From the NCBI GenBank assembly GCA_007128675.1, contig SKWY01000161.1:1-25815 (forward strand): a stretch of DNA of 25,815 bases, given 5' to 3'. Below, piece after piece: positions 1 to 21,200 of this stretch. A program made the translations under genes and the position numbers. Positions within the stretch are counted from its first letter, which is position 1. Each line of letters starts with the position of its first letter. The notes below the pieces were generated by a model. That model was not told where the DNA came from and made no database searches. It was given only the letters and a program-made list of their open reading frames with translations. This stretch comes from Deltaproteobacteria bacterium. GTDB lineage: Bacteria > Myxococcota > Myxococcia > SLRQ01.

Positions 1-1413
1 AACCTCTCCAGAACCCGCCATCGCCTTGGCGCGCGCGGCGAGGTTCACCGGCTCTCCATACACGTCGGCCCCGAATAAACGAACTTCTCCGGAAGATGCA
101 CCTACTCGAAGTCGCACGGCGAGGTCCTCGGCGGCCTCTCGAGTGTACCGCGCGGCACGGTCCTGCATTGCCGCCGCCGCTTTCATTGCCGAGGTCGGAG
201 AGGAGAAGGTGAAGAGCTGACTTTCCTGGATAGTCTTGACCTTCGTCCCGTCATGCTTCTTCGCGACGGGGACCGTCAAGGCCTCGAATATTGCCGCCAG
301 AGAGGCTTGGTCCTGGTATGAGAGCCGAGTCATCCTCTCCGCCAGATCCTCCATGGAGACGAAAACTACCGTCAGGTTGGCGGTGCGCATGCCCGCTGCT
401 GGCGGCTCCGAGGCATCCCTGCATTCGAGCCCGCTGCTCGTTTCTTCGGCCTCGCTCGAGGGAACCTCGGAAGATGAAGAGGGCTCGTCGGTCGAAGGGT
501 CACTTTCGGTCTCGGACGAGCCATGACCGGTTTCATCTTGGCTGCTCGCGAGGGACCAAGCCAGGGAGAGAGCGCCGGCCGCGGCCTCGGCGGTTGGGAA
601 CCGTTGTGAGGGACGTTTGGCGAGGAGCTGGTGTACCACCTTGGCGATCTCGCGCCCGGTCGGGGAGATCCGTTCGACCAGAGGAGGAGGATCCTCCTGT
701 GCATGCTGGGCGAGAACCTTCCTCGGAGTATCGCCCTTGAAAGGCAGTCGCCCCGAGAGCATCCGATACGCCAGCACTCCGAGCGAGTAGAGATCGCTTC
801 GAGCGTCGAGAGGTTGCCCCATGGCTTGCTCTGGTGAGACGTACTCCGGTGTGCCGACCACCATGCCGGCGGCCGTGAGGGGTGTCCTGTTGGAGTCTTC
901 CACGCCCATGAGCCGGGCGATCCCAAAGTCCACCACTTTGACGCGGCCCTTCGACGAGATGATCACATTGTCTGGCTTCAGATCCCTGTGAATGACTCCG
1001 AACTCATGGGCATGGCCAACGGCGGCGCAGATCTGGACGAGCACATCGACAGACTCTTCCAAGGGAAGCCCAACTCCCCCGGCGAGCATCAGCTCGAGGC
1101 TCTTACCTTCGACGAGGTCCATCACCAGAAATGGTCGATCCTGATGAGCTCCGTAGTCGAGAACTCTCACTATGCCGGGGTGATCCAGACGAGAGAGGAT
1201 CTTCGCTTCGTCCTCGAAGCGGCGTAGGACGACGGGGTCACTGACGCCGGCTCGTAGAACCTTCACCGCCACGGGGCGGTTCAAAGAGATTTGAACGCCT
1301 CGAAAGACCTCCCCCATCGCGCCATCACCGATGCGGGAGTCCAGGCGAAACCTCCCATCGAGGATAGCTCCCACGAGGTTCGTGCCGCCGCCCAATGGAG
1401 AGGAGGAGGTCAT
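1..1413 (-). CDS. Ser/Thr protein kinase fused to a C-terminal class III nucleotidyl cyclase homology domain (C2-like half-site). Partial: the 3' end runs off the window start.
   Basis: I reverse-translated this myself: the minus-strand frame with codon first bases at positions that are 0 mod 3 is open from ATG 1413-1411 down to position 1 (471 codons, no stop). It is absent from the ORF track only because it has no stop inside the window. Kinase motifs: Gly loop IGDGAMGEVF, VAVKVL Lys, HRDLKPDN (rc of 961-996), DFGIA, GTPEYVSPE. An acidic Ser-rich linker follows. The CHD shows FSSP, LRVGASSGEV and DVYGEPVNLAARA (rc of 1-120). Confidence 0.85.
   Translation of the reverse strand, partial: MTSSSPLGGGTNLVGAILDGRFRLDSRIGDGAMGEVFRGVQISLNRPVAVKVLRAGVSDPVVLRRFEDEAKILSRLDHPGIVRVLDYGAHQDRPFLVMDLVEGKSLELMLAGGVGLPLEESVDVLVQICAAVGHAHEFGVIHRDLKPDNVIISSKGRVKVVDFGIARLMGVEDSNRTPLTAAGMVVGTPEYVSPEQAMGQPLDARSDLYSLGVLAYRMLSGRLPFKGDTPRKVLAQHAQEDPPPLVERISPTGREIAKVVHQLLAKRPSQRFPTAEAAAGALSLAWSLASSQDETGHGSSETESDPSTDEPSSSSEVPSSEAEETSSGLECRDASEPPAAGMRTANLTVVFVSMEDLAERMTRLSYQDQASLAAIFEALTVPVAKKHDGTKVKTIQESQLFTFSSPTSAMKAAAAMQDRAARYTREAAEDLAVRLRVGASSGEVRLFGADVYGEPVNLAARAKAMAGSGEV
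558..1374 (-). other. Protein kinase catalytic domain within CDS 1..1413 (approximate bounds)
   Basis: Gly-rich loop through the APE motif, located by my own translation. All canonical catalytic residues (VAVK Lys, αC Glu, HRD, DFG) are present. Confidence 0.75.
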
Positions 1414-2771
1414 TCCTCGTGGTCTCCCTGCTCCAGGGCCGCTATTGCTCTTCGGGCCGCGCCTCGGAAGTCACAGCGAAGCCGGCCCAATCCCAGGGGA
1501 CCACGGGAACGAGAGGCCTCGGCCTCGAGGGCCTTCTCAAGTGCCGGGATGACGTCTTTCTGGCCCGTCAGGGCAAGGGTGTTCGCCGCAGCTCGGCGAA
1601 CGGGACAGCTGTCGTCCTCGAGAGCCTTCACCATTTGTTTCTTGATGGTTCGGTGTCCCGCATACGCGCCGGGCTCTGCGGATATTGCGCCGCGATAGGC
1701 GGCCGCGGCGTCGACGGGACGGTCCTTGCTCCATGCAAGATAGCCGCGCAGGTAGTGGACGTCCGCGTCGCGTTCAGGTCCTTCTTGCGAAAGCTCTTCG
1801 ATTGCTTCGATGGCCTCGGTGTAACGCGCCTCGTTCACGAGGGACTCGATGGATCCTATGGGATCCAACGTAAGGGGGCATTTGATTAGAAGCAGGGTGA
1901 GCGAACCCAAGAGTACCGCCAACAAGCCGCCGCATGCATAGAGGGTTGCTCGCCGGGGAAAGCCGCTGCCGGGTGATTCCAGAAGCTTGTCCTTGAGCTT
2001 CTTGCCGACCGCTTGTCCAACCGCCTCGATCTCTCCGGTGAGGCGGCGCCCATGGCCGCTCGTCGGCTCCGAGGAGCTCTTGACGTTGCGGTCTATCCAA
2101 TCCGCGTCGATGATGTCGAGCTGGGGGGGAGGAGGCAGGGTGCGATTGCCATACGGCGGGCCATCGGCGGCATGAGTGACGCGAGCGGCGCGAAACAGCC
2201 TTACCGCCTCGGGAAGGCCAGGCGCTTGACGTAGGCCGATCTCCTCGGTTGGGGCCTCCTTCCTGTTCATGGCCAGGTAGACCGACTCCGCTATTACGAC
2301 CTCCGAGGCTTCGGCAAAGCCCTCGAGCGCGAGGGCGCTGGTTACGGCCTCGCCGATTAGCTCCTTGTTGCTGACCTGGAGCTCTCCCAAGGTGAGCACG
2401 GCGCGGACCTCTATACGCTGGGTCGAAGGAACCTGGCTATTGTAGGCCCATAGACGGTCCTGTATCGCCATGGCGGAGCGGACGGCGTCTGTCGGAGAGG
2501 CAAAGGTAACGAGCCAGGCGTCTCCGATATCCTTCCTGCGGATGCCTCCGAAGAGCTTGACCACGGGTCCGAGAAGGGCCTCGTGGCGAGCGAGCCAACG
2601 GGCGCTCTCCTCTCTGCTTTGAGATGCCGTGCGCTCGGTAAAGCCCTTGATGTCCGTCAAGAGGACGGTCAGGTTCTCCGTGCGAAAGCTCGTCCGAAAA
2701 ATGCCGCTCATACCCTCGTTGCCTAGCCAGCGGAGATAGCCGCTTACTCGTGCGTCCCGGTACTCCGCCAA
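1410..2771 (-). CDS. Class III adenylyl/guanylyl cyclase homology domain protein (C1-like half-site) with a hydrophobic/TM segment and C-terminal HEAT/PBS-lyase-like repeats
   Basis: 453-aa ORF. The CHD shows LTVLLTDIKGFT (metal Asp), GGIRRKDIGDAWLVTF (Lys + second metal Asp) and RIEVRAVLTLGEL. The hydrophobic stretch is LYACGGLLAVLLGSLTLLLI. The C-terminus has HEAT-like repeats (RRAAANTLALTGQKDVIPALEKALE). The TGA stop at 1412-1410 overlaps the ATG of the downstream kinase gene (ATGA). The start is TTG 2771, which is the 5'-most possible because an in-frame TGA lies immediately upstream. An internal ATG at 2711 is an alternative start. Confidence 0.8.
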   Translation of the reverse strand: MAEYRDARVSGYLRWLGNEGMSGIFRTSFRTENLTVLLTDIKGFTERTASQSREESARWLARHEALLGPVVKLFGGIRRKDIGDAWLVTFASPTDAVRSAMAIQDRLWAYNSQVPSTQRIEVRAVLTLGELQVSNKELIGEAVTSALALEGFAEASEVVIAESVYLAMNRKEAPTEEIGLRQAPGLPEAVRLFRAARVTHAADGPPYGNRTLPPPPQLDIIDADWIDRNVKSSSEPTSGHGRRLTGEIEAVGQAVGKKLKDKLLESPGSGFPRRATLYACGGLLAVLLGSLTLLLIKCPLTLDPIGSIESLVNEARYTEAIEAIEELSQEGPERDADVHYLRGYLAWSKDRPVDAAAAYRGAISAEPGAYAGHRTIKKQMVKALEDDSCPVRRAAANTLALTGQKDVIPALEKALEAEASRSRGPLGLGRLRCDFRGAARRAIAALEQGDHEE

Positions 2772-2857: not shown

Positions 2858-3646
2858 TTGGGGGTGGCCGTGTCAGGGTTCCTCGATCACTTCGTTGCAT
2901 TTCCGACGGTTATCTTCACCGTTCTGCTCGGCATTCTACTGCTCTACTGGCTTCTAGTGATCGTGGGAGCACTCGGTATGCCGTCGGTCGATATCGACTC
3001 TGGCCTTGATAGTGGGCTGGAGGGCATCGGAGACGGGATTGGCGGCGCGGAAGGATTCGACGGGATTGGCGAAGCGGCCGAAGGCGTCGGCGAAGGGGCG
3101 TCGGGCCTTCTTTCGGGTCTCTTTCACGCATCCAAACTGGGAACGGTCCCCGTCACCGTGGCCACGAGCCTTCTGGTTTTTTGGGTGTGGCTCTCCAGCA
3201 TGTTTGGCAGCATCCTCCTTCGTCCCTACTTGCCCGACTGGGGCGCGGCGACGTTGGGCCTTCTCGTTATTCTCCCGCTCTCCTTCATCACGGGTCTGAT
3301 TCTGACCTCCCTCGTAGTCAGGCCGCTTGGGCCGTTGTTCGTGGTTCACGCGGCTCCGAGCAGACGGCAACTCGCGGGGCGCATTTGCGAGGTGAGGAGC
3401 GGAAGCGTGACCTCGGATTTTGGCCAGGCCGAGCTGGCGGACGGCGGGGCGGGCCTGATTCTCTCGGTGCGTTGTGCGAAGGAGAACGACCTGAAGCGAG
3501 GAGATCTGGTGGTCATAGTCTCCTATGACGAAGAGAAGGACACGTACGACGTCGAGCCCGTCGACTGGCTCGAGCCGGGCGAGCGCGTAGGTCGCCATGA
3601 GGCTCAAAGGATTATCCAAGAGATGAGAAAGGCAGGAAGGCTCTAA
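2858..3646 (+). CDS. NfeD-like membrane protein (short NfeD/YuaF type) that partners with SPFH/flotillin
   Basis: The N-terminus has hydrophobic helices. A Gly/Asp/Glu-rich acidic loop follows. More TM helices come next. The C-terminal OB-fold pattern resembles YuaF/NfeD (GRICEVRSGSVTSDFGQAELADGGAGLILSVRCAKENDLKRGDLVVIVSYDEEKDTYDVEPV). The TAA stop overlaps the ATG of the flotillin gene (TAATG). The start is TTG 2858 per the ORF track. GTG at 2864 or 2870 are alternatives. Confidence 0.7.
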   Translation: MGVAVSGFLDHFVAFPTVIFTVLLGILLLYWLLVIVGALGMPSVDIDSGLDSGLEGIGDGIGGAEGFDGIGEAAEGVGEGASGLLSGLFHASKLGTVPVTVATSLLVFWVWLSSMFGSILLRPYLPDWGAATLGLLVILPLSFITGLILTSLVVRPLGPLFVVHAAPSRRQLAGRICEVRSGSVTSDFGQAELADGGAGLILSVRCAKENDLKRGDLVVIVSYDEEKDTYDVEPVDWLEPGERVGRHEAQRIIQEMRKAGRL

Positions 3647-5748
3647 TGTCCGAACAACTGAACTACACTATTCCAGAGGCCTGGTTGCTCGTTGGGACCG
3701 CGATTCTAATTGGCTTCTTCCTGCTCCTTGGCTTCGGCCTCATGGTGAAGGCCTTCTACCGGAAGGTAGACCAGGGCAGAGCCCTCATCATAAACAAGCT
3801 GACGGCAGAGCCCACGGTGACGTTCACGGGAGGCCTCGTCCTTCCGATCATCTATCGCGCGGAGTTGATGGACATCTCCTTGAAGACGATCGAGATCGAT
3901 CGTCGGGGCAAGGAGGGCCTGATCTGCCAGGACAACATTCGCGCGGACATCAAGGTGACGTTCTATGTTCGAGTGAACAAGACGAAGGAGGACGTCCTCA
4001 AGGTTGCGCAGGCGGTGGGGTGCGAGCGAGCTTCCGACCAGCGCACTTTGGAAGAACTCTTCGTAGCCAAGTTCTCCGAGGCTCTGAAGACGGTCGGCAA
4101 GCGTCTCGACTTCGAGGACCTCTACCAGAAGCGAGACGACTTCAAGGATGCGATAGTTCGGGTCATTGGACAGGATCTGAACGGGTATCTCCTCGAGGAC
4201 GCGGCCATCGACTATCTAGAGCAGACGCCGGTGGAGCTGCTCGATCCAAAGAACATCCTCGATGCCCAGGGCATCAGGAAGATAACGGAGCTGACGACTC
4301 GGCAGAACATCTTCACCAACGACTTCCGTCAGACAGAGCGTAAGGAGATAAAGCGGCAGGATGTGGAAGCCGAAAAGGCCGTCCTCGATCTAGAGCGTGA
4401 CGAGGCCGACGCGCGCGCCACGCAGGCCCGTGAGGTCGATACGATGCGTGCGAGGGAGGAGGCGGAGACCCGCAAGATTCAAGCGGAGGAGCAGGCTCGT
4501 TCGGAGTCGGCGAGAATCAAGGCCGCCGAGCAGGTAGCGATCGAGAACGAGAACAAGATGCGACAGATCGAGATTGCCGCCAAGAATCGGGAGCGCGCCG
4601 TGCTTGTCGAGGGCGAGAAGGTTGAACGTGATCGCGCTTTGGAGCAGGTCGCTCGCGAGCGGCAGGTCGATCTCGAGACGATAGAGAAGGACAAGGCGAT
4701 AGAGGTCGAGAAGAAGGAGATCGCCGATGTGGTGCGCGAGCGCGTGGCCGTCGAGAAGAAGGTCGCCGAGGAGGAGGAGAGAATCAAGGATGTTCGCGCC
4801 ATCGAGGAGGCCAGACGTATGAAGGCCGTGCAGATCACGACAGCCGAAGCGGAGGCCGAGGAGAAGCTGGTCAAGGACATAAAGGAGGCCGAGGCCGCCG
4901 AGGAGGCGGCGAAGTTCAGGGCCCGGGAGCGGCTCGTTCTGGCTGATGCCGAGCTAGAGGCATCGGAGAGGGAGGCACAGGCCAAGATTCGGCTAGCCGA
5001 AGGTGTTCAGGCCGAGAGAGCCGCGCCTGGTCTCGGGAACGTCAGGGTTCAGGAAGCGCAGGCCGTGGCAATAGAAAAGCAGGGCCGCGCCGAGGCGATG
5101 GTCGTTCAGGAAAAGGGTCTTGCCGAGGTGCGGGTCCGCGAGCAAGACGCCCAGGCAGTGGAGAAGCTCGGGAAGGCCGAGGCCGTCTCGATTCAGGCAA
5201 GATTGGAGGGAGAGTCGGCGGGTCTTGCGAAGAAGGCGGAGGCGATGAAGCTTCTGGACGACTCCACTCGTCACCACGAGGAGTTCCGGATCCGGTTGGA
5301 GCAAGAAAAGGAGGTCAAGCTCACGCACATAGAGGCGAGGCGGCAGATCGCCGAGCAGCAAGCCATCGCGATGCAGAAGGCCTTCCAGACAGCCAAGATC
5401 AACATAGTCGGCGGTGATGGAGACTTCTTCGACAGGTTCATCAACGCGGTGGGCGTGGGACAGTCGCTCGACGCGGCCATCGAGCAGTCGAGTACGCTGC
5501 AGACAGGGCTTGGCGACTATCTTACCGGTGACCGCAGCTTGCCGGAGGACCTGCGTGAGATCCTCTCCAACCCCGCCTTCTCGAGTCAGGCTCTCCAGAA
5601 CACCTCCGTATCGGCTTTTCTATTGCATTTGATGCGGCGAGCCGATGATGAGACGAAGGAAGAGATAGCTCAGCTGCTGAAGCAGGCGGAGAAGCTGAAG
5701 GCCACAGTCGAGCCGGCGAAGGGCGGCGGCACCAAGAAGTCGCAGTAG
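3646..5748 (+). CDS. Flotillin-like SPFH/band-7 protein (FloT/YqiK family)
   Basis: 700 aa. It has an N-terminal TM helix. The SPFH domain covers roughly aa 55-230. A long E/A/K/R coiled coil follows with flotillin EA repeats (KAEAVSIQARLEGESAGLAKKAEAMKLL). The C-terminal region (AFQTAKINIVGG...) resembles the FloT tail. Confidence 0.9.
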   Translation: MSEQLNYTIPEAWLLVGTAILIGFFLLLGFGLMVKAFYRKVDQGRALIINKLTAEPTVTFTGGLVLPIIYRAELMDISLKTIEIDRRGKEGLICQDNIRADIKVTFYVRVNKTKEDVLKVAQAVGCERASDQRTLEELFVAKFSEALKTVGKRLDFEDLYQKRDDFKDAIVRVIGQDLNGYLLEDAAIDYLEQTPVELLDPKNILDAQGIRKITELTTRQNIFTNDFRQTERKEIKRQDVEAEKAVLDLERDEADARATQAREVDTMRAREEAETRKIQAEEQARSESARIKAAEQVAIENENKMRQIEIAAKNRERAVLVEGEKVERDRALEQVARERQVDLETIEKDKAIEVEKKEIADVVRERVAVEKKVAEEEERIKDVRAIEEARRMKAVQITTAEAEAEEKLVKDIKEAEAAEEAAKFRARERLVLADAELEASEREAQAKIRLAEGVQAERAAPGLGNVRVQEAQAVAIEKQGRAEAMVVQEKGLAEVRVREQDAQAVEKLGKAEAVSIQARLEGESAGLAKKAEAMKLLDDSTRHHEEFRIRLEQEKEVKLTHIEARRQIAEQQAIAMQKAFQTAKINIVGGDGDFFDRFINAVGVGQSLDAAIEQSSTLQTGLGDYLTGDRSLPEDLREILSNPAFSSQALQNTSVSAFLLHLMRRADDETKEEIAQLLKQAEKLKATVEPAKGGGTKKSQ

Positions 5749-5760
5749 AGGGCTACGTCA

Positions 5761-7848
5761 ATGGCGGCCCCACAAGCCAAGGATACAGAGGCGCTCGACG
5801 AGGCGGCGCTCGAAGGCGGAAGCTACGAAGTCTTGCGCCAGCGCCTCCTCGAGCAGGCGCGGATTTTGGCGGAAAAAGCTGCTCGCCTGAACGAGCGACG
5901 TCAGGAGAGCTTTGGTGGAGTGGAGCTATCCATCATCGGCAACGAGCGCATCCGCACGGAGAACAACTGTGTGCCCCAGGACATGGTGCAGGTGCAGGGC
6001 ATGCTCCTGTTTGGCTACAACGTCTTCGTGGGGCTGCGCAAGGAGACGCGTGTCTCCGACGTCTTCGCATTGCACCGGTTCGAGCACGAAGAGGAAGGCT
6101 TCGACCTCTCCGCCGTGCCGCTAGAGGAGGCTCCTGCTAGTCTCTTGCGTCACGAAAGGTTCGTTCGAGAGTTCGAGGAACTCTACCGCTACTACTCGAG
6201 CACTCGCCTTTCGCTTCTTCGTCGCACCGAGTCCAGGCTGCTTGCCGTTTTTCGTGTCGGAGCCGGCGAGAAGGATGTGAGGGTCTTCAGGTGGGAACTC
6301 GATGGCGCTGGAGAAGCCACCTACATCGATAATCGAGGCGAGAGGGAGCACGTCTTCCCTAGATCTCACGACTTCGAGTGGATCGCCACTGGCAGGGAAG
6401 ACCAAGTCAGGGGCCCGCATCCACATGTATCCATCTTGGAGGAGGTCTTCGTCGAGGCGGTCGGTGGCGACCTGACAGTAAAGGTCGAGAACAACACCGA
6501 GGATGGACAGGGAATATACGCCGAGCCGGTGGACGAACCAAGCCAGGGACTGGACGACGGTCAGATCGAGTACGCCAAGGTCGGCAGCCTGATACTGATT
6601 CGGGTGTTGCCGTTTCGCGAGAGCGAATGGCGTCACCTCGTCTTCAATACTCGCACCAAGCAGGTAGCGCGCATAGATGCGATTGGCCAGGCCTGTGTCT
6701 CCTTGCCCGAGGATCAGGGGATCATCTTTCCGGGGGGCTACTACCTGCAGACCGGGGACTATCGCCTCTTCGATACGGACACGAGCGGTCTTCGCTTCAA
6801 GAGAGCTATTCGTTCTCCCAATGGCGAGGATGTTCTCTACGTCTTCCACCGGGACAGCGACGGGCATTTTCTCCTCTTTCCGTACAACATTGTGCGCCAG
6901 GAAGTTGCCAGCCACATCAACTGTCACGGTTACAGCCTCTTCGATGACGGCAAGATGGTCGTATTTCGGGCCGTGAGCGACGAGCCGACGCGGGTGCACC
7001 CCGTCCAGATATGGCAGACGCCTTTCAGCTCCGCCGAGCATGCCGCGGGGCACGCGGTCGATGCTTCCTTCCTAGGACGAATCGGCAACTCCGATCTGGT
7101 GAGGGGCGTCTCCGATTGCTTCACCATCTGCAGGATGGCGCGGTCGGAAGAGGCGGGCCGGGAGACCTACGAGGATTTGGTCGGCCAGGTTCAGCGGGTG
7201 ATCGATGCATACTACTGGCTGTCGGACTCCGAGGTGGAGGACATAGCCTCCAACCTCGCGGAGCTGAAGGCGACCTCCGAGCTGATATTGGACGAGTACG
7301 AAAAGGTCGTCGCGATGAGAGCCAGGGCAAAGGAGGCTCTCTTTACCGCACAGGAGAGAGCCCGGGCCTTGCTGCGAGAGATTCGCCCCGACACATGGGA
7401 GCGAGTCGACGACTTCTTGAAGGCCATGACGGGGCTGCGCACCGAGCGAGGCCACGTAATCACCGTCAAGGATGTTCGCTACGTGGACGTGGCCAGCCTT
7501 GATTCCCTGGAGGAGGAGATTGCCGCCGCTTTCGATGAGGTCAGCGAGGCTGCTGTCTCCTTCTTGCTGAACAAGGACGCATTCGCTTCGATGCGGGAGG
7601 ATCTGGACAGGCTCTCCAGCAGAATCGCCGAGGCGAGGGGCTCCGTGGAGCTGACCGAGCTATTCGAGCGTCTCGACGAGCTTGCCGATTGTCTCACGGT
7701 GCTCGGCGAGACGGTAGGTGGACTCGAGGTCGGCGATCCGACGGCGCGTACAGATTCTTCAAGACGTCTCGGAGGTCTTCTCTCTTCTGAACCGTGTTCG
7801 AGCAACGCTCGCAAACCGCCGCCAGGATCTGCTCGGGCGCGAGGGTAG
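5761..7848 (+). CDS. Large conserved hypothetical protein with an N-terminal coiled coil, a beta-rich middle and a C-terminal helical region. The last ~130 nt are probably not genuinely coding (see the frame transition with the next ORF).
   Basis: 695-aa ORF. A GAGGG SD lies 8 nt upstream of ATG 5761, which is 12 nt after the flotillin stop. GC3 is high through ~7720, then third-codon positions turn A/T-rich up to the stop at 7848. I recognise no domain. Confidence 0.55.
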   Translation: MAAPQAKDTEALDEAALEGGSYEVLRQRLLEQARILAEKAARLNERRQESFGGVELSIIGNERIRTENNCVPQDMVQVQGMLLFGYNVFVGLRKETRVSDVFALHRFEHEEEGFDLSAVPLEEAPASLLRHERFVREFEELYRYYSSTRLSLLRRTESRLLAVFRVGAGEKDVRVFRWELDGAGEATYIDNRGEREHVFPRSHDFEWIATGREDQVRGPHPHVSILEEVFVEAVGGDLTVKVENNTEDGQGIYAEPVDEPSQGLDDGQIEYAKVGSLILIRVLPFRESEWRHLVFNTRTKQVARIDAIGQACVSLPEDQGIIFPGGYYLQTGDYRLFDTDTSGLRFKRAIRSPNGEDVLYVFHRDSDGHFLLFPYNIVRQEVASHINCHGYSLFDDGKMVVFRAVSDEPTRVHPVQIWQTPFSSAEHAAGHAVDASFLGRIGNSDLVRGVSDCFTICRMARSEEAGRETYEDLVGQVQRVIDAYYWLSDSEVEDIASNLAELKATSELILDEYEKVVAMRARAKEALFTAQERARALLREIRPDTWERVDDFLKAMTGLRTERGHVITVKDVRYVDVASLDSLEEEIAAAFDEVSEAAVSFLLNKDAFASMREDLDRLSSRIAEARGSVELTELFERLDELADCLTVLGETVGGLEVGDPTARTDSSRRLGGLLSSEPCSSNARKPPPGSARARG

Positions 7849-10800
7849 GGTCGAGTTCGGGGCCCAGTTCGCTCTGTTCAGTCAGACCGTTGAGAGCGCT
7901 CTAGCCCTATGTGACGAGCCTGACAAGTGCGACGAGCAGCTCTCGCGGGTGCTGGTGACCTTGGAGGAGCTGGAGAGCCGCTTTTCCGACTTCGATGAGT
8001 TCGCGGAGCAGCTGACGGAGAAGCGCGAAGAGGTCTATGAGGCGTTCACGGGCCGAAAGCAGCAGCTACGAGAGGGGCGGCAGCGCCGAGCCGCGAATCT
8101 TGTCGTGGCGGCTGACAGGATATTCCAAGGGATTGAGCGGCGAGCCGGAACCTTCAAGGATCAGGATGAGCTGAACGGCTTCTTCGCTTCGGATCCGATG
8201 GTTCATCGCTTGAGAGGGCTCGTGGGGCAGCTGCGTGAGCTCGATGATCCGGTAAAGGCGGACGAGATCGAGGGACGCTTGCAGTCTGCCAGACAGGATG
8301 CGCTGCGAACGCAGCGCGATAGGGCGGATCTCTTCGAGGAAGGGCAGGCCGTCGTTCGTCTGGGAAGACACAGGTTCAATGTTTCCACCGAGCAGGTCGA
8401 GTTGACCTTGGTGCCTAGAGGCGAGGAGATGATGCTCCATCTCTCGGGCACGGACTACTACGAGAAGCTCGAGGATCCCGAGCTGGAGGCCGCGCGGCAT
8501 CTTTGGCATCAGCAGTATGTATCCGAGTCCGAGGATGTCTATCGGGCCGAGTATCTTGCGGCCCAGATTCTGTTCACGGCCGAGGCGGCGCGGGAAGGGC
8601 TTTCCCTCGCCGGGTTGCACGAGGCCTACCGACAGGACGGCGGCCTGCTCGAGCTCACCCGTCAGTTCGCGGCCGATAGGTACGAGGAAGGCTACGAGCG
8701 AGGTGTTCACGACTCGGACGCCGCGCGAATTCTGGAGAAGCTTCTCGCAATGCGAGAGACGGTGGGCCTGCTTCGGTTCCCGCCGGAGCCCAGGGCGCTG
8801 GCATGTCTGTTCTGGGCGCTACACGAGGACGAGAACGAGCTGGGCAGCATCGCCCGAAGAGCCGGTAGCCTCGGTCGTCTCCGCAATGCCTTCTCACAGG
8901 AGGTGGGCCTCGCCGCGCTCGGTGATGAGCTCGGCCGCAGGATCGATGCATTCCTGGAGAAGGCGGGGATAGAGCACGGCCGCGGTGACGTGCTCCTCGC
9001 GGGACGTTACCTCGCCGAGGAGCTGACTCGCGAGAATCCTCGCTTCGTGGTGGGCCAGGACGCGGTGGTGTTGCAAGAGGCTTTGCTTCGCCACCTCGAA
9101 CAGCACGGGATGCGGACGGCTTTCGAGCAGGACCTCGACGCCCTTCGCCCGTCGCCTCGTCAGGTGCTAGAGCTATTGGTGGCTTGGCTCGAGGGGTTCG
9201 TGCAGAGCCGAGAAGGAAAGAAACACGCGGATAGGAGGGAGTCCATCCTGGCGGCGGCGGTGCTGTTCCTGACCGAGGGGCGTCTGGAAAGAGAGGTCTC
9301 GAGCGCGCGCACTCGGATGGAAATCGAAGGCCTTCTGGGTCAGCATCCGAGAGTGAGTTCGGGAAGGATCGAGGTCAGGCTCGAGGCCTTCTTGGAGCGT
9401 CTAGCTGAATTCATCGAGACGAGGGCTCCAGAGTACAGGGCATACCGAAAGGAGTCCGCCCTCATCCTCGAGCGTGAGCGCCAGCGCTTGAGGCTCGATG
9501 AGCTCAAGCCCAAGGTGCTCACCTCCTTCGTTAGGAACCAGCTCATAAACGACGTCTACCTTCCGCTGATTGGCGGCAATCTCGCCAAGCAGCTTGGCGC
9601 CGCCGGCGCTGATAGGCGGACGGACCAAAGCGGTCTTCTGCTTCTGATCTCGCCGCCCGGTTACGGCAAGACGACGCTGATGGAGTATGTCGCGAGCACT
9701 CTCGGGCTCATATTCGTCAAGGTCAACGGTCCTTCTCTTGGGCATGCCGTGACCTCCCTCGATCCGGCGGAGGCGCCCAACGCCACGGCTCGCCAAGAGG
9801 TGGAGAAGATCAATCTCGCTCTCGAGATGAGCAATAACGTCATGTTGTACCTGGACGATATTCAGCACACCCACTCCGAACTCTTGCAGAAGTTCATAAG
9901 CCTATGTGACGCGCAGCGGCGTGTCGAAGGTGTCTGGAAGGGGCGAACGCGGACATACGACATGCGCGGCAAGCGTTTCGCGGTGGTCATGGCTGGAAAC
10001 CCATATACGGAGGCGGGCGAGCGCTTCCAGCTTCCCGACATGCTCGCCAATCGAGCGGATACCTACAACCTCGGCGATATCCTGGAAGGAAAGGATCAGC
10101 TCTTTGCGCAAAGCTACATCGAGAACGCGCTCACATCGAACCCGGTGCTGAGGCCCTTGTCCGGAAGGGAGCCACGTGATGTGCGACTCTTCATTCGGAT
10201 GGCCAGGGGCGAGGAGATTCCGACCAGCGATCTCTCTCACAACTACTCGGCGGCCGAGATCGAGGAGATCCTCGCGGTTCTACGGCATCTGACGAAGGTC
10301 CAAGCGGTCTTACTCGAGGTGAACGCCCAGTACATTCGTTCGGCCAGTCAGGACGACAGGTATCGCACCGAGCCTCCATTCAAGCTGCAGGGCTCATACA
10401 GAAACATGGCCCGCATCGCGGAAAGAGTCGTCCCGGCCATGACGCCCGAGGAGGTCGAGCGATTGATAGACGATCACTACCTCGGAGAGTCCCAGACCTT
10501 GACCACGGGAGCGGAGCAGAATCTGTTGAAGCTCGCCAAGATGCGCGACCGAGTGAGCGAGGAGCAGGCCGAGCGCTGGGAGGAGATCAAGAGGGGCTTT
10601 GCTCGTCATCAGATCATGGGCTCCAGCGAGGAGGATCCGACCGTTCGAGCCCTCGGGCAGTTGGCCGCTCTCACCGAGCAGGTCAGTGCGCTACGCGATG
10701 TGGTGGCCTCCGCGGCAAAGGCCGGTCGCGTCGAGGCAAGGCAATCAAAGGATGTCGAGAAGAGCGAGAAGGCCGAAGCTCGTAAGAGGAGCCTCGAGGA

Positions 10801-11530
10801 GAGCGCCGAGCGCGAAGCCAAGGAGAGGCTCGAGGCCATGCGGATGCAGTCCGAGCTTCACCTAGAGGCATCCACAAAGGCAGCGCTACTGCAGGGAGAG
10901 CAGCAGGCCAAGGCCTTTGGAGAGGCGGCACGGGTTCAGGCGCACGCTCAGATGGAGGCGGCCAGGCTCCAGGTAGAGGCCAAGATGGAAGCGGCCAAGA
11001 CTCACGCTCGGGCTCAGGCGCAGATCCAATCGAGGCTCGCCGAGGTGCTCGTTCCGAGGCTCGAGTCTCTGGAGAAGGCATTGGCCAAGGTGGCCGAGTC
11101 CGCCGCCAAGGCATCGAAGGCCGCCGCCAAATCCAGCCCATCGGCGACAGGCGAGGCTCACTCTGCTGCAGCGGTTGATCTATCGCCCCTGATCGAAAAG
11201 CTCTCGGACACGCTCGAGGCCCTGGCCGACCGAAAGGTGGAGCTTCAGATTCCTCCGGATGCTTTCATGGGCCCGATGATGCCGCCGCTCGCGCTGTCAC
11301 AAGGTTCCATCGAATCGGGTTCGGCGCCGGGTGAGGGCGAGGAAGGCCAGCCGTTGGGTCCACCTGGTTATTCCCATCAGCTCCGGCTCATTCAGGATGC
11401 GCTCATGCCACTTCGCCAGTTGTCTCGTCGCCAGATCCGAGACGGCGAGGGGAAGATGAGTGCGATGCAGGTTTGGCGACAAGTGAACGAGGCCTTGCAG
11501 GTGGTCCAGGCGGCCGCATTTTGGAAATAG
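7718..11530 (+). CDS. Very large protein with a central MoxR-like AAA_5 ATPase domain and a C-terminal flotillin-like EA-repeat coiled coil
   Basis: 1270-aa ORF. Walker A is LLISPPGYGKTTL (~9645-9676). Walker B is VMLYLDDIQH (~9840-9869). There is a helix-2-insert-like segment. Sensor-1 is FAVVMAGNPYTE (~9984-10013). An Arg-finger-like LANRADTYNLGD follows. The C-terminus has AEA-rich repeats. The GTG start at 7718 lies immediately after an in-frame TAG, with no convincing SD. Confidence 0.75.
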   Translation: MDSRSAIRRRVQILQDVSEVFSLLNRVRATLANRRQDLLGREGRVEFGAQFALFSQTVESALALCDEPDKCDEQLSRVLVTLEELESRFSDFDEFAEQLTEKREEVYEAFTGRKQQLREGRQRRAANLVVAADRIFQGIERRAGTFKDQDELNGFFASDPMVHRLRGLVGQLRELDDPVKADEIEGRLQSARQDALRTQRDRADLFEEGQAVVRLGRHRFNVSTEQVELTLVPRGEEMMLHLSGTDYYEKLEDPELEAARHLWHQQYVSESEDVYRAEYLAAQILFTAEAAREGLSLAGLHEAYRQDGGLLELTRQFAADRYEEGYERGVHDSDAARILEKLLAMRETVGLLRFPPEPRALACLFWALHEDENELGSIARRAGSLGRLRNAFSQEVGLAALGDELGRRIDAFLEKAGIEHGRGDVLLAGRYLAEELTRENPRFVVGQDAVVLQEALLRHLEQHGMRTAFEQDLDALRPSPRQVLELLVAWLEGFVQSREGKKHADRRESILAAAVLFLTEGRLEREVSSARTRMEIEGLLGQHPRVSSGRIEVRLEAFLERLAEFIETRAPEYRAYRKESALILERERQRLRLDELKPKVLTSFVRNQLINDVYLPLIGGNLAKQLGAAGADRRTDQSGLLLLISPPGYGKTTLMEYVASTLGLIFVKVNGPSLGHAVTSLDPAEAPNATARQEVEKINLALEMSNNVMLYLDDIQHTHSELLQKFISLCDAQRRVEGVWKGRTRTYDMRGKRFAVVMAGNPYTEAGERFQLPDMLANRADTYNLGDILEGKDQLFAQSYIENALTSNPVLRPLSGREPRDVRLFIRMARGEEIPTSDLSHNYSAAEIEEILAVLRHLTKVQAVLLEVNAQYIRSASQDDRYRTEPPFKLQGSYRNMARIAERVVPAMTPEEVERLIDDHYLGESQTLTTGAEQNLLKLAKMRDRVSEEQAERWEEIKRGFARHQIMGSSEEDPTVRALGQLAALTEQVSALRDVVASAAKAGRVEARQSKDVEKSEKAEARKRSLEESAEREAKERLEAMRMQSELHLEASTKAALLQGEQQAKAFGEAARVQAHAQMEAARLQVEAKMEAAKTHARAQAQIQSRLAEVLVPRLESLEKALAKVAESAAKASKAAAKSSPSATGEAHSAAAVDLSPLIEKLSDTLEALADRKVELQIPPDAFMGPMMPPLALSQGSIESGSAPGEGEEGQPLGPPGYSHQLRLIQDALMPLRQLSRRQIRDGEGKMSAMQVWRQVNEALQVVQAAAFWK
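9600..10150 (+). other. AAA_5 (MoxR/dynein-related) ATPase core within CDS 7718..11530 (approximate bounds)
   Basis: The motif order is Walker A, Walker B (hhhhDD), an insertion, then a sensor-1 containing the NP dipeptide, then a conserved Arg. This is the order typical of the MoxR/AAA_5 clade. Confidence 0.65.
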
Positions 11531-13765: not shown

Positions 13766-14242
13766 ATGTCTGATGGAAAAGAGAGCCCCTCAACGGCCGG
13801 TTTGAGCCGCCGGACAAGACAGATCCTGGAGGTAGTCTACCGGCTCGAGCGCGCTACGGCGGCGGAGATTCAGCAAGCTCTTCCCGATCCGCCTAGCTAC
13901 TCCGCGGTTAGAACGCACCTTCGGATTCTGGAGGAGAGGGGCCATTTGACCCATGTCTCCGAGGGGCCTCGATATGTCTACACTCCCAAGGTTCCTCGCG
14001 AACGAGCCTCTCGCGGAGCCATTCGCCACTTGGTGGATACCTTTTTCGAGGGCTCCGTTGCTCACGCGGTGGCCGCGCTCTTGGACACCTCGAGCTCGAA
14101 GCTATCGCCCGAGGACGTGGAGCATCTGAAGGTTCTCATCGAGGATGCGAGAAAGGAATCTGCTTCACGGTCCCAAGATGCCGCCGCGCGACCTGCGAGA
14201 AGCCGCCGCGGCGCATCGAAACGTAAGGGGGAAGGCAAGTGA
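13766..14242 (+). CDS. BlaI/MecI/CopY-family (penicillinase-repressor-type) winged-helix transcriptional repressor
   Basis: 158 aa. The N-terminal wHTH pattern is RQILEVVYRLERATAAEIQQAL...SAVRTHLRILEERGHL. A C-terminal dimerisation helix follows. An M56 BlaR1-like peptidase gene overlaps its stop (GTGA at 14239-14242). Confidence 0.8.
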   Translation: MSDGKESPSTAGLSRRTRQILEVVYRLERATAAEIQQALPDPPSYSAVRTHLRILEERGHLTHVSEGPRYVYTPKVPRERASRGAIRHLVDTFFEGSVAHAVAALLDTSSSKLSPEDVEHLKVLIEDARKESASRSQDAAARPARSRRGASKRKGEGK

Positions 14243-15444
14243 GTCTATTGCTCGAGTCCACCATTAGGTGGTCGGTGCTTCTCCTGCTCGTCTTTGCGTT
14301 TTGTTTTTTTTGGCGAGGTTCCGCGGCCGTAAGGCACCTCGCCTGGACCTTTGGCGCCGTAACCGGTCTGCTCTTTGTCGTGATCGGGTTGCTTGGACCG
14401 ACCTGGACCCTGACTCTGCCATGGTTGCAGGCTGCCGCGGCCGATCCCGTCGTGACCACCAAGGCTTCCTCGTCCTCGTCGGGGGCCCCGGTCGCTGCCG
14501 CATTCTTTTGGCCGAACCTTCTTCTCCTAGGCTGGCTGCTGGGATCGCTCTTGCTGATGGGTTGGACCTTGCTCGGGGTCGCCCTCTCCGCGCTTCTCTT
14601 GCGGGAGGCGACCGAAGTCCGAAGGCCCCTTCCCGATGTCGCGGAAGGCATTTGCGTGCGCTCGAGCAGCCGGGTCTCAGGCCCGGTCACAGTGGGGTTG
14701 TTGCGACCTGTGATAGTAGTGCCAAAACGCGCCTTGTCATGGACGCCGGTTCGTTGGGATGCGGCGCTGGCTCATGAGGCGGCCCATGTGCGGCGCAAGG
14801 ATGTCCTGATACGGTGCCTTGGCGCGCTCGTCCGGGCCGTTCATTGGCCAAACCCCTTGGCATGGGTGATGCTCTCGCGCATTCGTCACGAGGCCGAGAT
14901 GGCCGCCGACGAGTCGGTCTTGGGCTTGGGTGTAAGGCCGGCCGATTACGCCGAGTTGCTTCTCGAGGAGAACGATTACCTGGGCCGTGGCCTTGGACCG
15001 CTGGTCTCCGTCTCCATGAATCGAGGAGATCTCTCCCGTCGAATCAAATGGGTGCTTGGAAGATCGCGGCGGGCTCCGCCGCCCCGTGGATACGTTGCCA
15101 TTGGCGCCCTGTTGGCAATGTTTTTCGCAGTTCCCGCGGCGATCGTCACCTTCGTACCTCCCGAAGCCGAGCCGGCCGAAACAGCCGGCGCGGCAGGTGA
15201 TGGCGCCGATTCATCTGCGGTCGCGTCGGCTCCACGGACCATTCACGCCCGCGTGGGAGATCTTATTTCGGAGCGCTTCGATGGCATCTCCAGGATTGCC
15301 ATATCCAACCCCTCGAGCCTCGACGTTCGGCATCCAGTGGATGGCGAGATCGTAATGGAGGCGCTGGCCCCCGGTGATTCCAGCGTCCTGATTTGGCTTG
15401 GGGGGCAGGAGCCGGCCGAGAGGCTGATCGTCGAGGTCGAGTAG
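14239..15444 (+). CDS. BlaR1/MecR1-like peptidase M56 signal transducer with a noncanonical C-terminal secretin/pilus-N-like sensor domain
   Basis: 401 aa. It has N-terminal TM helices. The zinc motif is HEAAH (AHEAAHVRRKD) with a downstream EMAADES Glu. A final TM helix comes next. Then there is a ~100-aa extracellular tail (RIAISNPSSLDVRHPVDGEIVMEALAPGDSSVLIWL) instead of a penicillin-binding domain. Confidence 0.8.
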   Translation: MSLLLESTIRWSVLLLLVFAFCFFWRGSAAVRHLAWTFGAVTGLLFVVIGLLGPTWTLTLPWLQAAAADPVVTTKASSSSSGAPVAAAFFWPNLLLLGWLLGSLLLMGWTLLGVALSALLLREATEVRRPLPDVAEGICVRSSSRVSGPVTVGLLRPVIVVPKRALSWTPVRWDAALAHEAAHVRRKDVLIRCLGALVRAVHWPNPLAWVMLSRIRHEAEMAADESVLGLGVRPADYAELLLEENDYLGRGLGPLVSVSMNRGDLSRRIKWVLGRSRRAPPPRGYVAIGALLAMFFAVPAAIVTFVPPEAEPAETAGAAGDGADSSAVASAPRTIHARVGDLISERFDGISRIAISNPSSLDVRHPVDGEIVMEALAPGDSSVLIWLGGQEPAERLIVEVE

Positions 15445-17923: not shown

Positions 17924-18235
17924 CAAACGAACTCTCTTCAGGCTCGTGTTTCCTCCGGCGCCGATAGCGCGTATTGTCTCGCGCGTGGAGAGGACTGGCT
18001 CCAGCGAGGGAAGGATGCCGTTGATGGCGGCATCGAGTGCTTTCGGGCTGCTGCTTCCAGCTCATGCATGCCGGCCCTTTCTGCCCGGCGAAAGCGAGCC
18101 GTGGTCGCGCGGGCTCTCGATGATTCGCCATTCAAGAGGCAGGGCGCCGGTTACAGGTCCATCAATCGGCGCGAGGGCGGCGAGGGAAGAACGACGCCAT
18201 AAAGCGGGCCATCCTGCCCCGGCGGGTGAGAGGCA

Positions 18236-21200
18236 ATGATCGAGCTCATCTACTCGAATAGAACCGAGCGTCTTCTCGAGGCTCTAGTCGTACGTCTAGA
18301 GGAGCAAAGAGCCGGCGGCGGCCACCCGCTGGATCCCGTCGAGATCGTCGTGCCGAACCGAAACATGGAGACATGGGTGTCCCTGGGACTGGCACGCCAC
18401 ACTGGAGTAGCGGCGAACCTTCGCTGTCGGAGGCTAGAGCACTTCTTCGGCGATCTCGTGCTCGAGGCCTTCGAGGGCCGGCGGCGCCTTGTCGATCTCG
18501 ATACCATCGAGTCCGCCATACTCTCCATCTTGCTGGATAGAGAGCAGCTGGAAGAGCCGGACTTGGAGCCGGTGCGAAGCTACTTGCAGGCCGCGGGCAT
18601 CGAGCCTTCCGGCTGTAGCTTCTCATTCGACGCTCATCTTTCCTCCGACGGGGTAGACCTTCGGCGGGTGCAGCTCGCATCTCGTTTGGCCTATCTTTTT
18701 CAGGAGTACTCTTACGGGCGCCCGGAGATGATTGCCTCTTGGCGCGAGCCCTCGAGAGGCGAAGCCCGGGGTCGGCCACTGACCGATCCCGCCGCCATCG
18801 ATCCCGTCACCAGCCCAACCCTGGCTTGGCAGCGCGTGCTCTGGCGCGCTGTCTTCGGAAGAGATGGAGTGCTCGAGAGAAGTCCGCCCACGCCGCAAGG
18901 CTCCTGGACGACCCTCGATCTACTGGCGACGGATGATGATGTATTCGAGAGGCTTGCGAAGAGCGCCTTGCCGCCGGTGCACATCTTCGGAGTGTCCTAT
19001 GTGGCCAGGCTCTTTCAGCTCTTGTTCGCTCGGCTCTGCCGGGTTCGTACCCTCCGGGTCTACTCGCTGAATCCTTGTGCCGAGTACTGGGAGGATGTGG
19101 AGACCCATAGGGAGCTACTGGGGCGCCTGAAAAGAGAGGGCAGCCGGCATGACCGGCCTTCTCGCTTCGGGGCGGTGGAACAAGATGCGGCGAGTGCCGG
19201 CGATGAGGATCCGTTCGGTCTATCCCAGGAAGACACGCCCGCCCTTCGGTACTGGGGAAGGCCTGGACGTGAGCACGTGAGGCTGCTCGGGGAGCTGACC
19301 GGGTGTGATTTTCAAGGCGCATTCGAGGATCCTCTCACGGGCCGCGAGAGGAGCGGCCTGCTCCATTTCCTGCAAAAGGACATTCTCTTTCGCGAGCCGC
19401 CACGCTCACCAAAGCCCGAGCAGGCGGAGGAATCGGCAAGCGACCAGACGCTTCGCTTCGTTGCCGCGCCCTCGATCCGCCGCGAGGTCGAGTGGGTTGC
19501 CGACGAGATCTGGCGCCTCATGCGCGAGGACGAGCAAGGCGACGGGGGACCGTCTCTTCGTTTCAGCGACGTGGCGGTGATAGTAAATAGCGAAGGCCGC
19601 GACGCCTATCTTCCGCAGATCGAATCGGTCTTCGCCGCCTGCAACGAGATCCCTCGCAGCGTCTCCGATCTTCCTGGTGCGTCCGGCAGCCGCCTCATCG
19701 AGGCGATGAGTCTCCTTCTCGAGCTTCCCTTCGGTCGTCTTTCCCGTGCCGAGGTGTTGTCCTTCATGAGTCATCCGGCCGTCATAGGCCATTTCGATGG
19801 GGCGAGCCCGGAGGAGCTGGCGAGGCAGGCGGAGGCTCTGGGGATCATATTCGGCGCCGACCTCTCCGATCACGAGGGGACCTATGTGGACGAGGATGTC
19901 CTAAGCTGGGATCAGGGCATCCGGAGGCTGGCCCTTGGCGCCTTCATGACCGGTGAGAAGAGCGGCGATGAGCGAGTGTTCGAGTCACCCGCGGGTAGAT
20001 GGCTCGTGGAGGAAAACAACGCCTCCAGCTTTGATGCTCCTCGATTTGGGCTCCTTGCGCGATCCTTGATCTCCGACGCCCGCTTCGTGCGCGAGAGAAA
20101 GATGACGCTTACGGACTGGGGCCGGTTCTACTCCACACAGCTCGATGCTTACCTTGCGGTGGAGCAGGGCGCCGACTCCGGGGATCGGCTGCGCTGCCTC
20201 CGCGCGCTCGGCAGGTTGGAGGCGATGGATCAGGGCTGCAAGGTCAGCGGCCGGATCGCCTCCAAGCTTGCCGGCCGTGCCATCGAGTCCCTCGGCGGAG
20301 GCCGAGGCCAGTACTTGGCCGAAGGGGTGGTCGTCTCCTCCTTCCTTCCCATGCGAGCCATCCCCTTCAAGGTCATCTTCGTCCTGGGCCTTGGAGAAGG
20401 TCTCTTTCCGGCATCGGGGCGTCATGACGCCCTGGACCTTCGCGCGGGCAGGCGCCGGGCGGGCGACGTCGATCCCTCGGAGCGCGACCGCTACATGTTC
20501 TTGGAGACCCTTCTTTGCGCAAGAGAGAAGCTCTATCTCTCCTATGTCAGAAGGGACGAGCAGACAGGCGATCCCCTTCAGCCCTCCGCCGTGGTCCAGG
20601 AGCTGGCCCATATCCTGGAGACCGGTTATCTCGACAAGGAAGGAATCGAGAGGCTGCGGGTCGAACCTCCGTTGTGGCGTTTCGACGAGACCTTCGCATC
20701 GAGCAGATCCTTTTTGGACGAGGCAAGGATCGAGGCGAGAGTCCAAGATGCGGCCGATAGCTGGCGCGATCATATGCAAAGGTCTATTGGCCGGATGCTC
20801 GCCGACTACTCCTTGTCCCATGTGGAGGAGCTTCGAGGGGATCTCGAGGGGATGAGGCGTGTTGTCTCCGAGGACAGCTGGACCAGGCTTTCGAGTTTGC
20901 TGGCGCTTCCAGGAGAGCCGCCTCCCGTCTCGGCGGTGACCGTTACCCCTGTGCGCCATGGCCCCGGCGACGAAGAAAGGATCGAGGAGTCAATCTCCAT
21001 CTCGCTCTCCAATCTGCGCCGTTTTCTCGCCTGCCCCATGCAGGGCTGGGCATCGACCATGCTCGGCCTCCACGAAGAGGAGGAGGATCTCCTCGATCGA
21101 GAGGAGGAAGACTTCGAGATTGGCATGCTCATGGAGACGAGCATTCTTCGAGAGTCCTTCCTCGATGCCGCCGAGAAGGGGTTGTCCGCCTCGAGCGTCC

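Follow-up and report, generated by a model that had tools for sequence, protein, structure and literature searches.

Two overlapping genes on the minus strand, referred to here as genes A and B, lie at the left end of a 25,815-nucleotide stretch of DNA from a deltaproteobacterium of the Myxococcota (GenBank assembly GCA_007128675.1, contig SKWY01000161.1, positions 1 to 25,815; the whole of this stretch is referred to as the window). Each of them encodes a predicted membrane-anchored protein with a class III cyclase homology domain (CHD). The residues from which the catalytic site of such an enzyme is built were found to be divided between the two proteins, with a C1-like set in A and a C2-like set in B. 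An earlier note on this DNA, made from the sequence alone, had predicted an obligate heterodimeric adenylyl cyclase, and the analysis described below followed up this prediction.

Gene and domain organization of the pair

Both open reading frames (ORFs) were intact and, as the earlier note had described, shared an ATGA on the minus strand, in which the start codon of gene B lies over the stop codon of gene A (GAATGACC); the coordinates of this and other features are listed in Table 1. The two CHDs were therefore encoded by two ORFs and not in one polypeptide, unlike those of the transmembrane and soluble adenylyl cyclase (tmAC and sAC) type. The likely true start of gene A is the ATG at 2711, giving a protein of 433 amino acid residues (aa), because it matches the public protein P0001 (433 aa) and an equivalent Met in the orthologues; the residue numbers of A used here follow the 453-aa form of the maximal ORF. 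Gene B is cut by the left end of the window after residue 471, and the rest of it was recovered from the ENA contig k141_776557 (L001), which was retrieved by searching for proteins identical to A. In L001, all 849 aa of B are encoded at 6293-8842, and the full-length protein is annotated with Pkinase, Guanylate_cyc, and TPR_20.

Protein A consists, in this order, of the CHD, a linker, one predicted transmembrane (TM) helix, and a C-terminal helical-repeat domain. In phmmer searches against solved structures, its CHD matched 3mr7 (E value of 2e-12), together with Ma1120 and Rv1900c. The AlphaFold2 (AF2) model of A had a mean predicted local distance difference test (pLDDT) score of 81.8, and its CHD superposed on Ma1120 with a template-modelling score of 0.88 and a root-mean-square deviation of 2.1 A (template-modelling score against Rv1900c, 0.85); judged by this model, the CHD of A has the class III cyclase fold.

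Protein B carries, in order, a Hanks kinase domain, an acidic Ser/Thr-rich linker, the CHD, a second linker, a TM helix, and a helical-repeat domain. All of the kinase motifs were intact (GDGAMG, VAVK, HRDLKPDN, DFG, and SPE; residues 29, 48-51, 142, 162, and 187), and in a fold search with the AF2 model the kinase matched PknB and PknA at 38-40% identity; from these features, the kinase is apparently PknB-like and active. Kinase matches dominated this search, and the CHD of B was unranked in it. The CHD of B matched Ma1120 (E value of 1e-9) and 3mr7 (1.7e-9) in phmmer searches; in the AF2 model (mean pLDDT of 77.4) it showed the cyclase order of secondary-structure elements, mostly at pLDDT values of 85-97. 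The last ~40 residues of this CHD, including K497, lie outside the window, in L001.

The CHDs of A and B aligned with each other without gaps at 30% identity (BLASTP of A against B, E value of 4e-24). A and B are paralogues with a common architecture, the kinase being the extra part in B. In NCBIfam, B scored 162.9 bits against TIGR03903 (TOMM system kinase/cyclase fusion), the cut-off of which is 705.75, and is not a member of this family, whose long ATPase/TPR tail is absent from B. Membership of LipJ (NCBIfam NF058673) was considered and rejected: the scores, 47.6 and 34.1 bits, fell far below the cut-off of 800, and only the CHD part aligned.

The C-terminal helical domain of A is presumed to be a periplasmic sensor. 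Its cysteines C389 and C433 (approximately 1473-1607 of the window) were invariant in two family alignments, and a Cys pair 30-44 residues apart was kept in this domain across the family (C803 and C833 in B). The conserved pair suggests a disulfide and an extracytoplasmic location of the presumed sensor domain. Since R-R precedes the helix of A and the Cys pair is conserved, an N-in topology is predicted, with the CHDs and kinase in the cytoplasm and the helical domains outside it. A further motif, P-[YF]-G-[GN]-x-x-L, was found ~10 residues past the CHD in every member of the CHD-TM-HEAT family (aa 204-212 in A, approximately 2136-2162 of the window; aa 517-525 in B, in L001), and it was present alike in complete, C1-like, and C2-like proteins.

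Table 1. Coordinates of the features of genes A and B in the window. Names of residues in parentheses refer to the canonical columns described in the text.
Feature	Position	Strand	Description
Gene A, C1-like subunit	1410..2771	-	Maximal ORF, 453 aa; TTG start at 2771
A CHD	2184..2687	-	aa 29-196; PF00211, 23.3 bits
A metal/phosphate loop	2637..2654	-	D40 (metal Asp 1), 2652-2654; D-I-K-G-F-T intact, G43-F44-T45 at 2637-2645
A Lys/Asp 2	2520..2534	-	K80 (base-specifying Lys), 2532-2534; D84 (metal Asp 2), 2520-2522, in R-R-K-D-I-G-D
A degenerate C2-type positions	2328..2363	-	E137 (Asp at -7), 2361-2363; T144 (Asn), 2340-2342; A148 (Arg), 2328-2330
A K-G motif position	2220..2222	-	P184
A predicted TM helix	1884..1943	-	aa 277-296, preceded by R-R; hydrophobic stretch, helical in AF2 model
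A C-terminal TPR/HEAT-like helical domain	1413..1874	-	HEAT_2, 30.1 bits, and TPR_16; pLDDT above 90
Start/stop overlap of genes A and B	1410..1413	-	ATGA, 4 nt; ATG of B over TGA of A
Gene B, C2-like subunit	1..1413	-	ATG start at 1413; residues 1-471 of 849 inside the window
B Ser/Thr kinase domain	529..1356	-	aa 20-295; Pkinase (PF00069), 172.2 bits
B disordered linker	391..525	-	aa 297-341; rich in Ser, Thr, Glu, and Asp; pLDDT below 50
B CHD, N-terminal three quarters	1..390	-	aa 342-471; PF00211, 22.2 bits
B metal/phosphate loop	340..357	-	S353 (metal Asp 1) in S353-M-E-D-L-A358; G-F-T replaced by D-L-A
B Lys/Glu	223..237	-	K393 (base-specifying Lys), 235-237; E397 (metal Asp 2), 223-225, in K-T-I-Q-E
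B retained C2-type residues	31..66	-	D450 (Asp at -7), 64-66; N457 (Asn), 43-45; R461 (Arg), 31-33
B K-G motif lysine			K497, in L001

Division of the catalytic residues in this and related pairs

The residue columns were assigned by phmmer alignments to the canonical 3mr7 (FGDAVNVAARLE) and to Ma1120, by the gapless BLASTP alignment of A against B, and by a hidden Markov model of the family built here, all of which agreed. The six canonical positions are written below as six-letter codes, in the order of metal Asp 1, base-specifying Lys, metal Asp 2, Asp at -7, Asn, and Arg. A read DKDETA and B read SKEDNR, which bore out the reading of the earlier note: the CHD of A keeps both metal Asp and has Thr and Ala at the positions of Asn and Arg (T144 and A148 in the alignment to 3mr7), and that of B has Ser and Glu at the metal positions and retains Lys, Asp at -7, Asn, and Arg.

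Two further positions, which had not been used in the earlier note, were divided in the same manner. The phosphate loop was intact in A and had lost G-F-T in B, while the lysine of the K-G motif, which corresponds to the gamma-phosphate contact K1065 of rat AC2, was kept in B (K497) and replaced by Pro in A (P184). The latter column was verified on the IIC2 chain of 1azs, in which the K-G lysine is located 47 positions past D1018. The complete single-chain catalytic set of the homodimeric bacterial enzymes was present in neither A nor B. Because of this division, one site of an A:B dimer would be complete, and nearly all of the catalytic residues would be missing from the other.

Close homologues were few, and the pair was conserved at 40-64% identity in several lineages. 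An A-type gene (DKDETK) is followed directly by a kinase-fused B-type gene (GKEDNR) in L002 and L003, and in L009 (GCA_003561785.1) an A-type gene of the same code accompanies the B-type protein P0013 (AKEDNR), which has no kinase domain. In L004-L007 (A-type, DKDEAK) and L170 (A-type, DKDEVR), the kinase-fused B-type gene (EKEDNR in both cases) comes first, followed by a gene for a 207-aa protein and then by the A-type gene. In L171, the A-type gene lies upstream of a B-type gene (AKDDNR), and only the C-terminus of A is on the contig. The 207-aa protein (2194-2817 in L004; 4709-5332 in L170) has a signal-peptide-like N-terminus and no Pfam match on record.

Over these orthologous pairs, the residues of the predicted productive site were constant: both Asp and G-F/Y-T in the A-type proteins, and K, D, N, R, and the K-G Lys in the B-type proteins. 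On the other hand, most residues of the second site (the pseudo-site) drifted. Metal position 1 of B was S, G, A, or E, and in A the Asn column was T, A, or V, the Arg column A, K, or R, and the K1065 column P, A, E, or C.

A metagenome scan with an alignment of B-type proteins yielded 80 loci, in each of which the same columns were read. Approximately 40 of them, from soil metagenomes, contained tandem CHD genes with complementary losses. The codes were DKGDNR followed by DKDDQR in 17 soil loci, and EKGDNR followed by DKDDQR in one more. In a further ~21 soil loci, the first gene (GKGDNR, GKADNR, or GKSDNR) lacked both metal Asp and kept K, D, N, and R, and the second gene (DKDDQE, DKDDQQ, DKDDRV, DKDDQS, DKDDGA, and similar) had both Asp and lacked Asn and Arg. 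The start of the second gene overlapped the stop of the first by 4 nt in 36 soil loci. The soil counts do not represent independent events because many of these loci were near-duplicates from different samples, yet they were spread over several sequence clades. The proteins of the soil pairs had a CHD-TM-(HEAT-like) build with no kinase. A prfC-like gene for peptide-chain release factor 3, recognized by its GTPase motifs, was located directly upstream of the C2-like gene in L113, L161, and L103 (approximately 4400-5950), and looks like a conserved context of the soil C2-like genes.

Among the distinct domain sequences of everything fetched, 41 were C1-like, 58 were C2-like, 200 were complete, and 3 had lost both sets. 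The K1065-type Lys was absent from all 41 C1-like domains (Arg in 8 of them) and kept in 56 of the 58 C2-like ones; K or R occupied this position in 197 of the 200 complete domains. The Thr or Ser of the phosphate loop was kept in all of the C1-like domains and in 197 of the complete ones, and was Ala in 47 of the C2-like domains. Among the loci fetched, neighbouring genes were never both C1-like or both C2-like. Since the two additional positions were divided in the same way, and since all adjacent degenerate pairs that were found repeated this division, the complementarity exceeds what would be expected by chance. The search for the same split pair in other genomes thus turned up the same partition both in the related pairs and in ~40 soil tandem loci, and the pair of the window, which might have been taken for an isolated oddity, belongs to a sizeable family.

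Two of the comparisons above also bear on the kinase, which the earlier note had treated as an integral part of the split pair. This view did not hold, as the orthologous protein P0013 and the B-type partners of all soil pairs are without it; across the sequences compared, the kinase is an optional, lineage-specific addition.

Complete CHDs were frequent among the relatives. When 1.84 billion cluster representatives were searched exhaustively with P0013, the best 150 matches comprised 126 complete domains (DKDDNR) and ~20 C2-like ones, several of the latter being kinase-fused. Complete-CHD relatives with the CHD-TM-HEAT architecture were common (P0008 and loci of Elusimicrobiota). In P0025 (L169, 1223-2959), a shortened C2-like CHD runs directly into a C1-like CHD (DKDDRA), and a TM helix and the helical domain come next; this protein, seen once, on one Logan contig, is a possible Rosetta-stone fusion of both subunits in nature. 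A single ORF with both CHDs in L111 was discarded as a second natural fusion: it results from a frameshift, and the translation after the first CHD matches an out-of-frame reading of L103. In a neighbour-joining tree made with the six columns masked, the A clade of the window stood apart from the C1-like clade of the soil pairs. Asn and Arg may therefore have been lost twice, which is tentative because the tree carries no support values.

Proposed heterodimer and alternative explanations

The C1/C2-like division of labour proposed in the earlier note, in which a complete Lys/Asp (ATP) site would be formed in the A:B heterodimer alone, is supported by the invariance of the productive-site residues over the orthologous pairs, by the drift of most pseudo-site residues, and by the same partition in ~40 tandem pairs. 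For physical pairing of the two CHDs, indirect support comes from the overlap of the genes, from their co-conservation, and from one fused homologue (P0025). With moderate confidence, we propose that A and B heterodimerize in the membrane and jointly build a single ATP site, with cyclic AMP (cAMP) as the predicted product. The organization of the genes, the identity of the domains, the assignment of the residues, and their pattern of conservation across pairs are direct results; from them we infer, as follows, the heterodimer, its catalysis and product, the membrane topology, and the function of the kinase. A and B would be co-expressed from their overlapping genes, inserted as single-pass membrane proteins, and paired head-to-tail via their cyclase domains. 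In the productive site, A would provide D40 and D84 for two Mg2+ and the G-F-T loop for the triphosphate, while in B, K393 and D450 would select the adenine, N457 and R461 would act on the ribose and transition state, and K497 would contact the gamma-phosphate. The symmetry-related site, consisting of S353 and E397 of B and K80, E137, T144, A148, and P184 of A, would be non-catalytic, like the mammalian forskolin site, and this second pocket has perhaps become regulatory. The two helical domains outside the cytoplasm, each probably disulfide-bonded, differ from each other and would together make up an asymmetric sensor. The kinase on B may be a second output of this sensor (phosphorylation in addition to cAMP) or a regulator of CHD pairing, for example via the Ser/Thr-rich linker.

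Several observations weigh against this heterodimer, and they are considered here together with the alternatives that they favor. One alternative, which we regard as unlikely but not negligible, is that both CHDs make up a non-catalytic pseudo-cyclase scaffold that joins two sensors and controls the kinase, the output being phosphorylation and not cAMP. This would fit the kinase-fused CHDs of Anaeromyxobacter, which belong to the same clade and are fully degenerate (EREDDA, EREDES, and QGGGAA). They lie beside a CHD-TM-HEAT gene (L011, from Anaeromyxobacter oryzisoli, 3969-7206; L012; L017) that is complete (DKDDNR) or is without the second metal Asp alone (DKEDNR, L017). Since a degenerate CHD sits by a complete one in these loci, their pairing is not catalytic complementation, and the pairing of a kinase-CHD gene with a CHD-TM-HEAT gene may be older than such complementation and need not imply it. 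Kinase-fused C2-like CHDs with no adjacent partner point in the same direction: among four kinase-fused C2-like relatives checked prospectively, one had a complementary partner (L170) and one a partner whose CHD was off the contig (L171), while P0044 (GKDDNR) and P0065 (EKGDNR) were orphans within +/-5 kb. Both CHDs of the window were also weak Pfam matches that, with 23.3 bits for A and 22.2 bits for B, barely exceeded the PF00211 gathering score of 21.9 bits, and no cyclic nucleotide-binding gene, as would be expected of a cAMP receptor nearby, or phosphodiesterase gene was found in the window. A scaffold, however, does not readily account for one full set of eight catalytic residues that is kept, split over two chains, while most residues of the pseudo-site drift, and the same partition occurs in pairs that have no kinase to control (L009 and all soil pairs).

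According to a second alternative, one subunit is active as a homodimer and the other modulates it, the heterodimer being facultative or inhibitory. The candidate would be A, with its metal Asp and Lys and substitutes for Asn and Arg; activity of B through Glu or other acidic residues is less likely. Ma1120, which was deposited as an adenylyl cyclase and whose structure was determined with ATP analogues, has Ala in the canonical Asn column and an Asn two residues before it, so that the loss of Asn alone is no proof of a dead A homodimer. Moreover, several A-type proteins have Lys or Arg in the Arg column (DKDETK, DKDEAK, and DKDEVR). As for B, the Glu at metal position 2 (Q-E-[ST/A]) was invariant in the clade of the window (L002, L004, L009, and L170), and in this clade metal position 1, or a site 2-3 residues past it, was always acidic. 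Because of these residues, B may retain some metal binding, and its pseudo-site may still bind something, such as a cation or a nucleotide. Unpaired genes exist on both sides: besides the C2-like orphans, the A-type relatives L008 (DNDATA) and L010 (DQDKAA) had no CHD partner within reach. We nevertheless consider activity of a lone subunit quite unlikely. The A protein of the window lacks Asn, Arg, and the K1065-type Lys all together, metal position 1 of B is Gly or Ala in L002 and L009, both metal positions are Gly in the soil C2-like domains of the GKGDNR type, and the lost positions were always complementary between neighbours. That the genes are redundant tandem duplicates in neutral decay towards pseudogenes, with coincidental complementarity, would agree with the low Pfam scores of the tandem paralogues and with their few close relatives, but is very improbable given two intact ORFs with confidently folded models, a pair kept at 40-64% identity in several lineages, orthologous pairs free of frameshifts and of random, non-complementary losses, and the eight-position partition in ~40 other pairs.

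Returning to the heterodimer, it is quite possible, and we propose it tentatively, that class III adenylyl cyclases made of two separately encoded, heterodimerizing subunits form a widespread and hitherto undescribed bacterial family, of which the pair is one case. Tandem CHD-TM-sensor paralogues would have subfunctionalized into C1- and C2-like halves, possibly repeatedly, mostly as separate genes and occasionally as a fusion; the pseudo-site would have been kept as an allosteric pocket for a cation or nucleotide, and a Hanks kinase wired in in one lineage.

Other genes of the window and comparison with known systems

Divergent from the cyclase pair, on the plus strand, are genes for a 262-aa membrane protein (2858-3646) and a 700-aa Glu/Ala/Lys-rich protein (3646-5748), which is probably coiled-coil; they have no Pfam match, and they adjoin the pair in L001 too, not in L002, L004, or L009. 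A gene for an HD-domain response regulator was found in L001, approximately 7 kb from the pair. DUF7902 was split over two overlapping plus-strand ORFs of the window (5761-7848 and 7718-11530): the ORF of a DUF3686 ATPase ends with its positions 1-60 of 85, and the following ORF, which carries AAA_5, begins with its positions 58-84. The split could be due to a frameshift or an assembly error, or to one long gene being read in two frames. A BlaR1-type M56 peptidase gene (14239-15444, plus strand) is preceded, with a 4-nt overlap, by a small ORF (13766-14242), possibly for a BlaI-like repressor. A RecC-like gene (Exonuc_V_gamma and RecC_C) and then a gene for a RecB-like UvrD helicase with a PD-(D/E)XK nuclease domain occupy 18230-25815 (plus strand), and their maximal ORFs overlap by approximately 90 nt.

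The division of the eight positions between A and B was the same as that in mammalian membrane adenylyl cyclase (AC5 C1 and AC2 C2; PDB 1azs and 1cjk). In the mammalian enzyme, both metal Asp and the loop D-I-x-G-F-T (T401 of AC5) belong to the C1 half, Lys, Asp, Asn, Arg, and K1065 belong to the C2 half, and together the halves form one active site, with ATP specificity given by Lys/Asp, and one degenerate pseudo-site. Whereas the mammalian enzyme is one chain with 12 TM helices, A and B are two genes for predicted single-pass proteins with extracytoplasmic domains of their own; their CHDs belong to another, bacterial sub-lineage (closest to Ma1120, Rv1900c, and 3mr7), and the features for G-protein and forskolin are absent. 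Soluble guanylyl cyclase alpha/beta is encoded by two genes, as are A and B, and has paralogous CHDs whose obligate heterodimer contains one catalytic site and one pseudo-site. It is a eukaryotic, GTP-specific (Glu/Cys), soluble enzyme with H-NOX, PAS, and coiled-coil domains. A and B differ in being predicted to be ATP-specific, in their membrane anchors, and in the kinase on one subunit.

The homodimeric bacterial enzymes (Ma1120, the CHD of Rv1900c/LipJ, Rv1625c/Cya, and CyaB) share the fold and include the closest sequence and structure matches to A and B; however, each of their chains carries the full residue set and they have two symmetric sites, whereas A and B are each incomplete. Bacterial class III adenylyl cyclases have been described as homodimerizing, and the duplication and fusion behind pseudo-heterodimers have been placed in early eukaryotes (Schultz 2022, PMC9552081). 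Kinase-cyclase fusions, in which a PknB-like kinase is followed by a CHD as in B, are already known from TIGR03903, and P0009 and P0014 are fused as well, which is a correction to the earlier note. P0009 and P0014 have the same TM helix and helical-repeat C-terminus as B, but their CHDs are complete (DKDDNR), whereas that of B is deficient in the metal site. According to PMC8815786, the chytrid rhodopsin-guanylyl cyclases NeoR/RGC are separately encoded membrane sensor-cyclase subunits that are functional exclusively as heterodimers; they differ from A and B in being eukaryotic, with rhodopsin sensors and cyclic GMP as the product. The gcyB/gcyC genes of Rhodospirillum centenum were not counted as a precedent: Dong et al. 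(2015) called them 'putative guanylyl cyclase subunits' and also 'non-catalytic subunits', a review of 2023 called them 'guanylate cyclase genes', neither source mentions complementary CHDs, and the gcyB/gcyC sequences were not compared.

No description of a natural bacterial heterodimeric class III cyclase was found in the searchable literature, the coverage of which is incomplete, and a prior mention is possible. What appears to be new is the C1/C2 asymmetry of a class III cyclase in the form of two bacterial genes, the kinase-cyclase fusion being known already. Proteins of this type are labelled 'adenylate cyclase' or have no Pfam cyclase record, yet neither subunit is predicted to be active alone, which calls for caution in annotation. 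The kinase fusion suggests that one membrane sensor may drive both cAMP synthesis and Ser/Thr phosphorylation. If the proposal is correct, these pairs would offer simple two-protein models for the regulation of one-site cyclases and of pseudo-sites, and the asymmetric cyclase design would also arise by subfunctionalization of separate genes, against the view of its origin by duplication and fusion in eukaryotes (PMC9552081).

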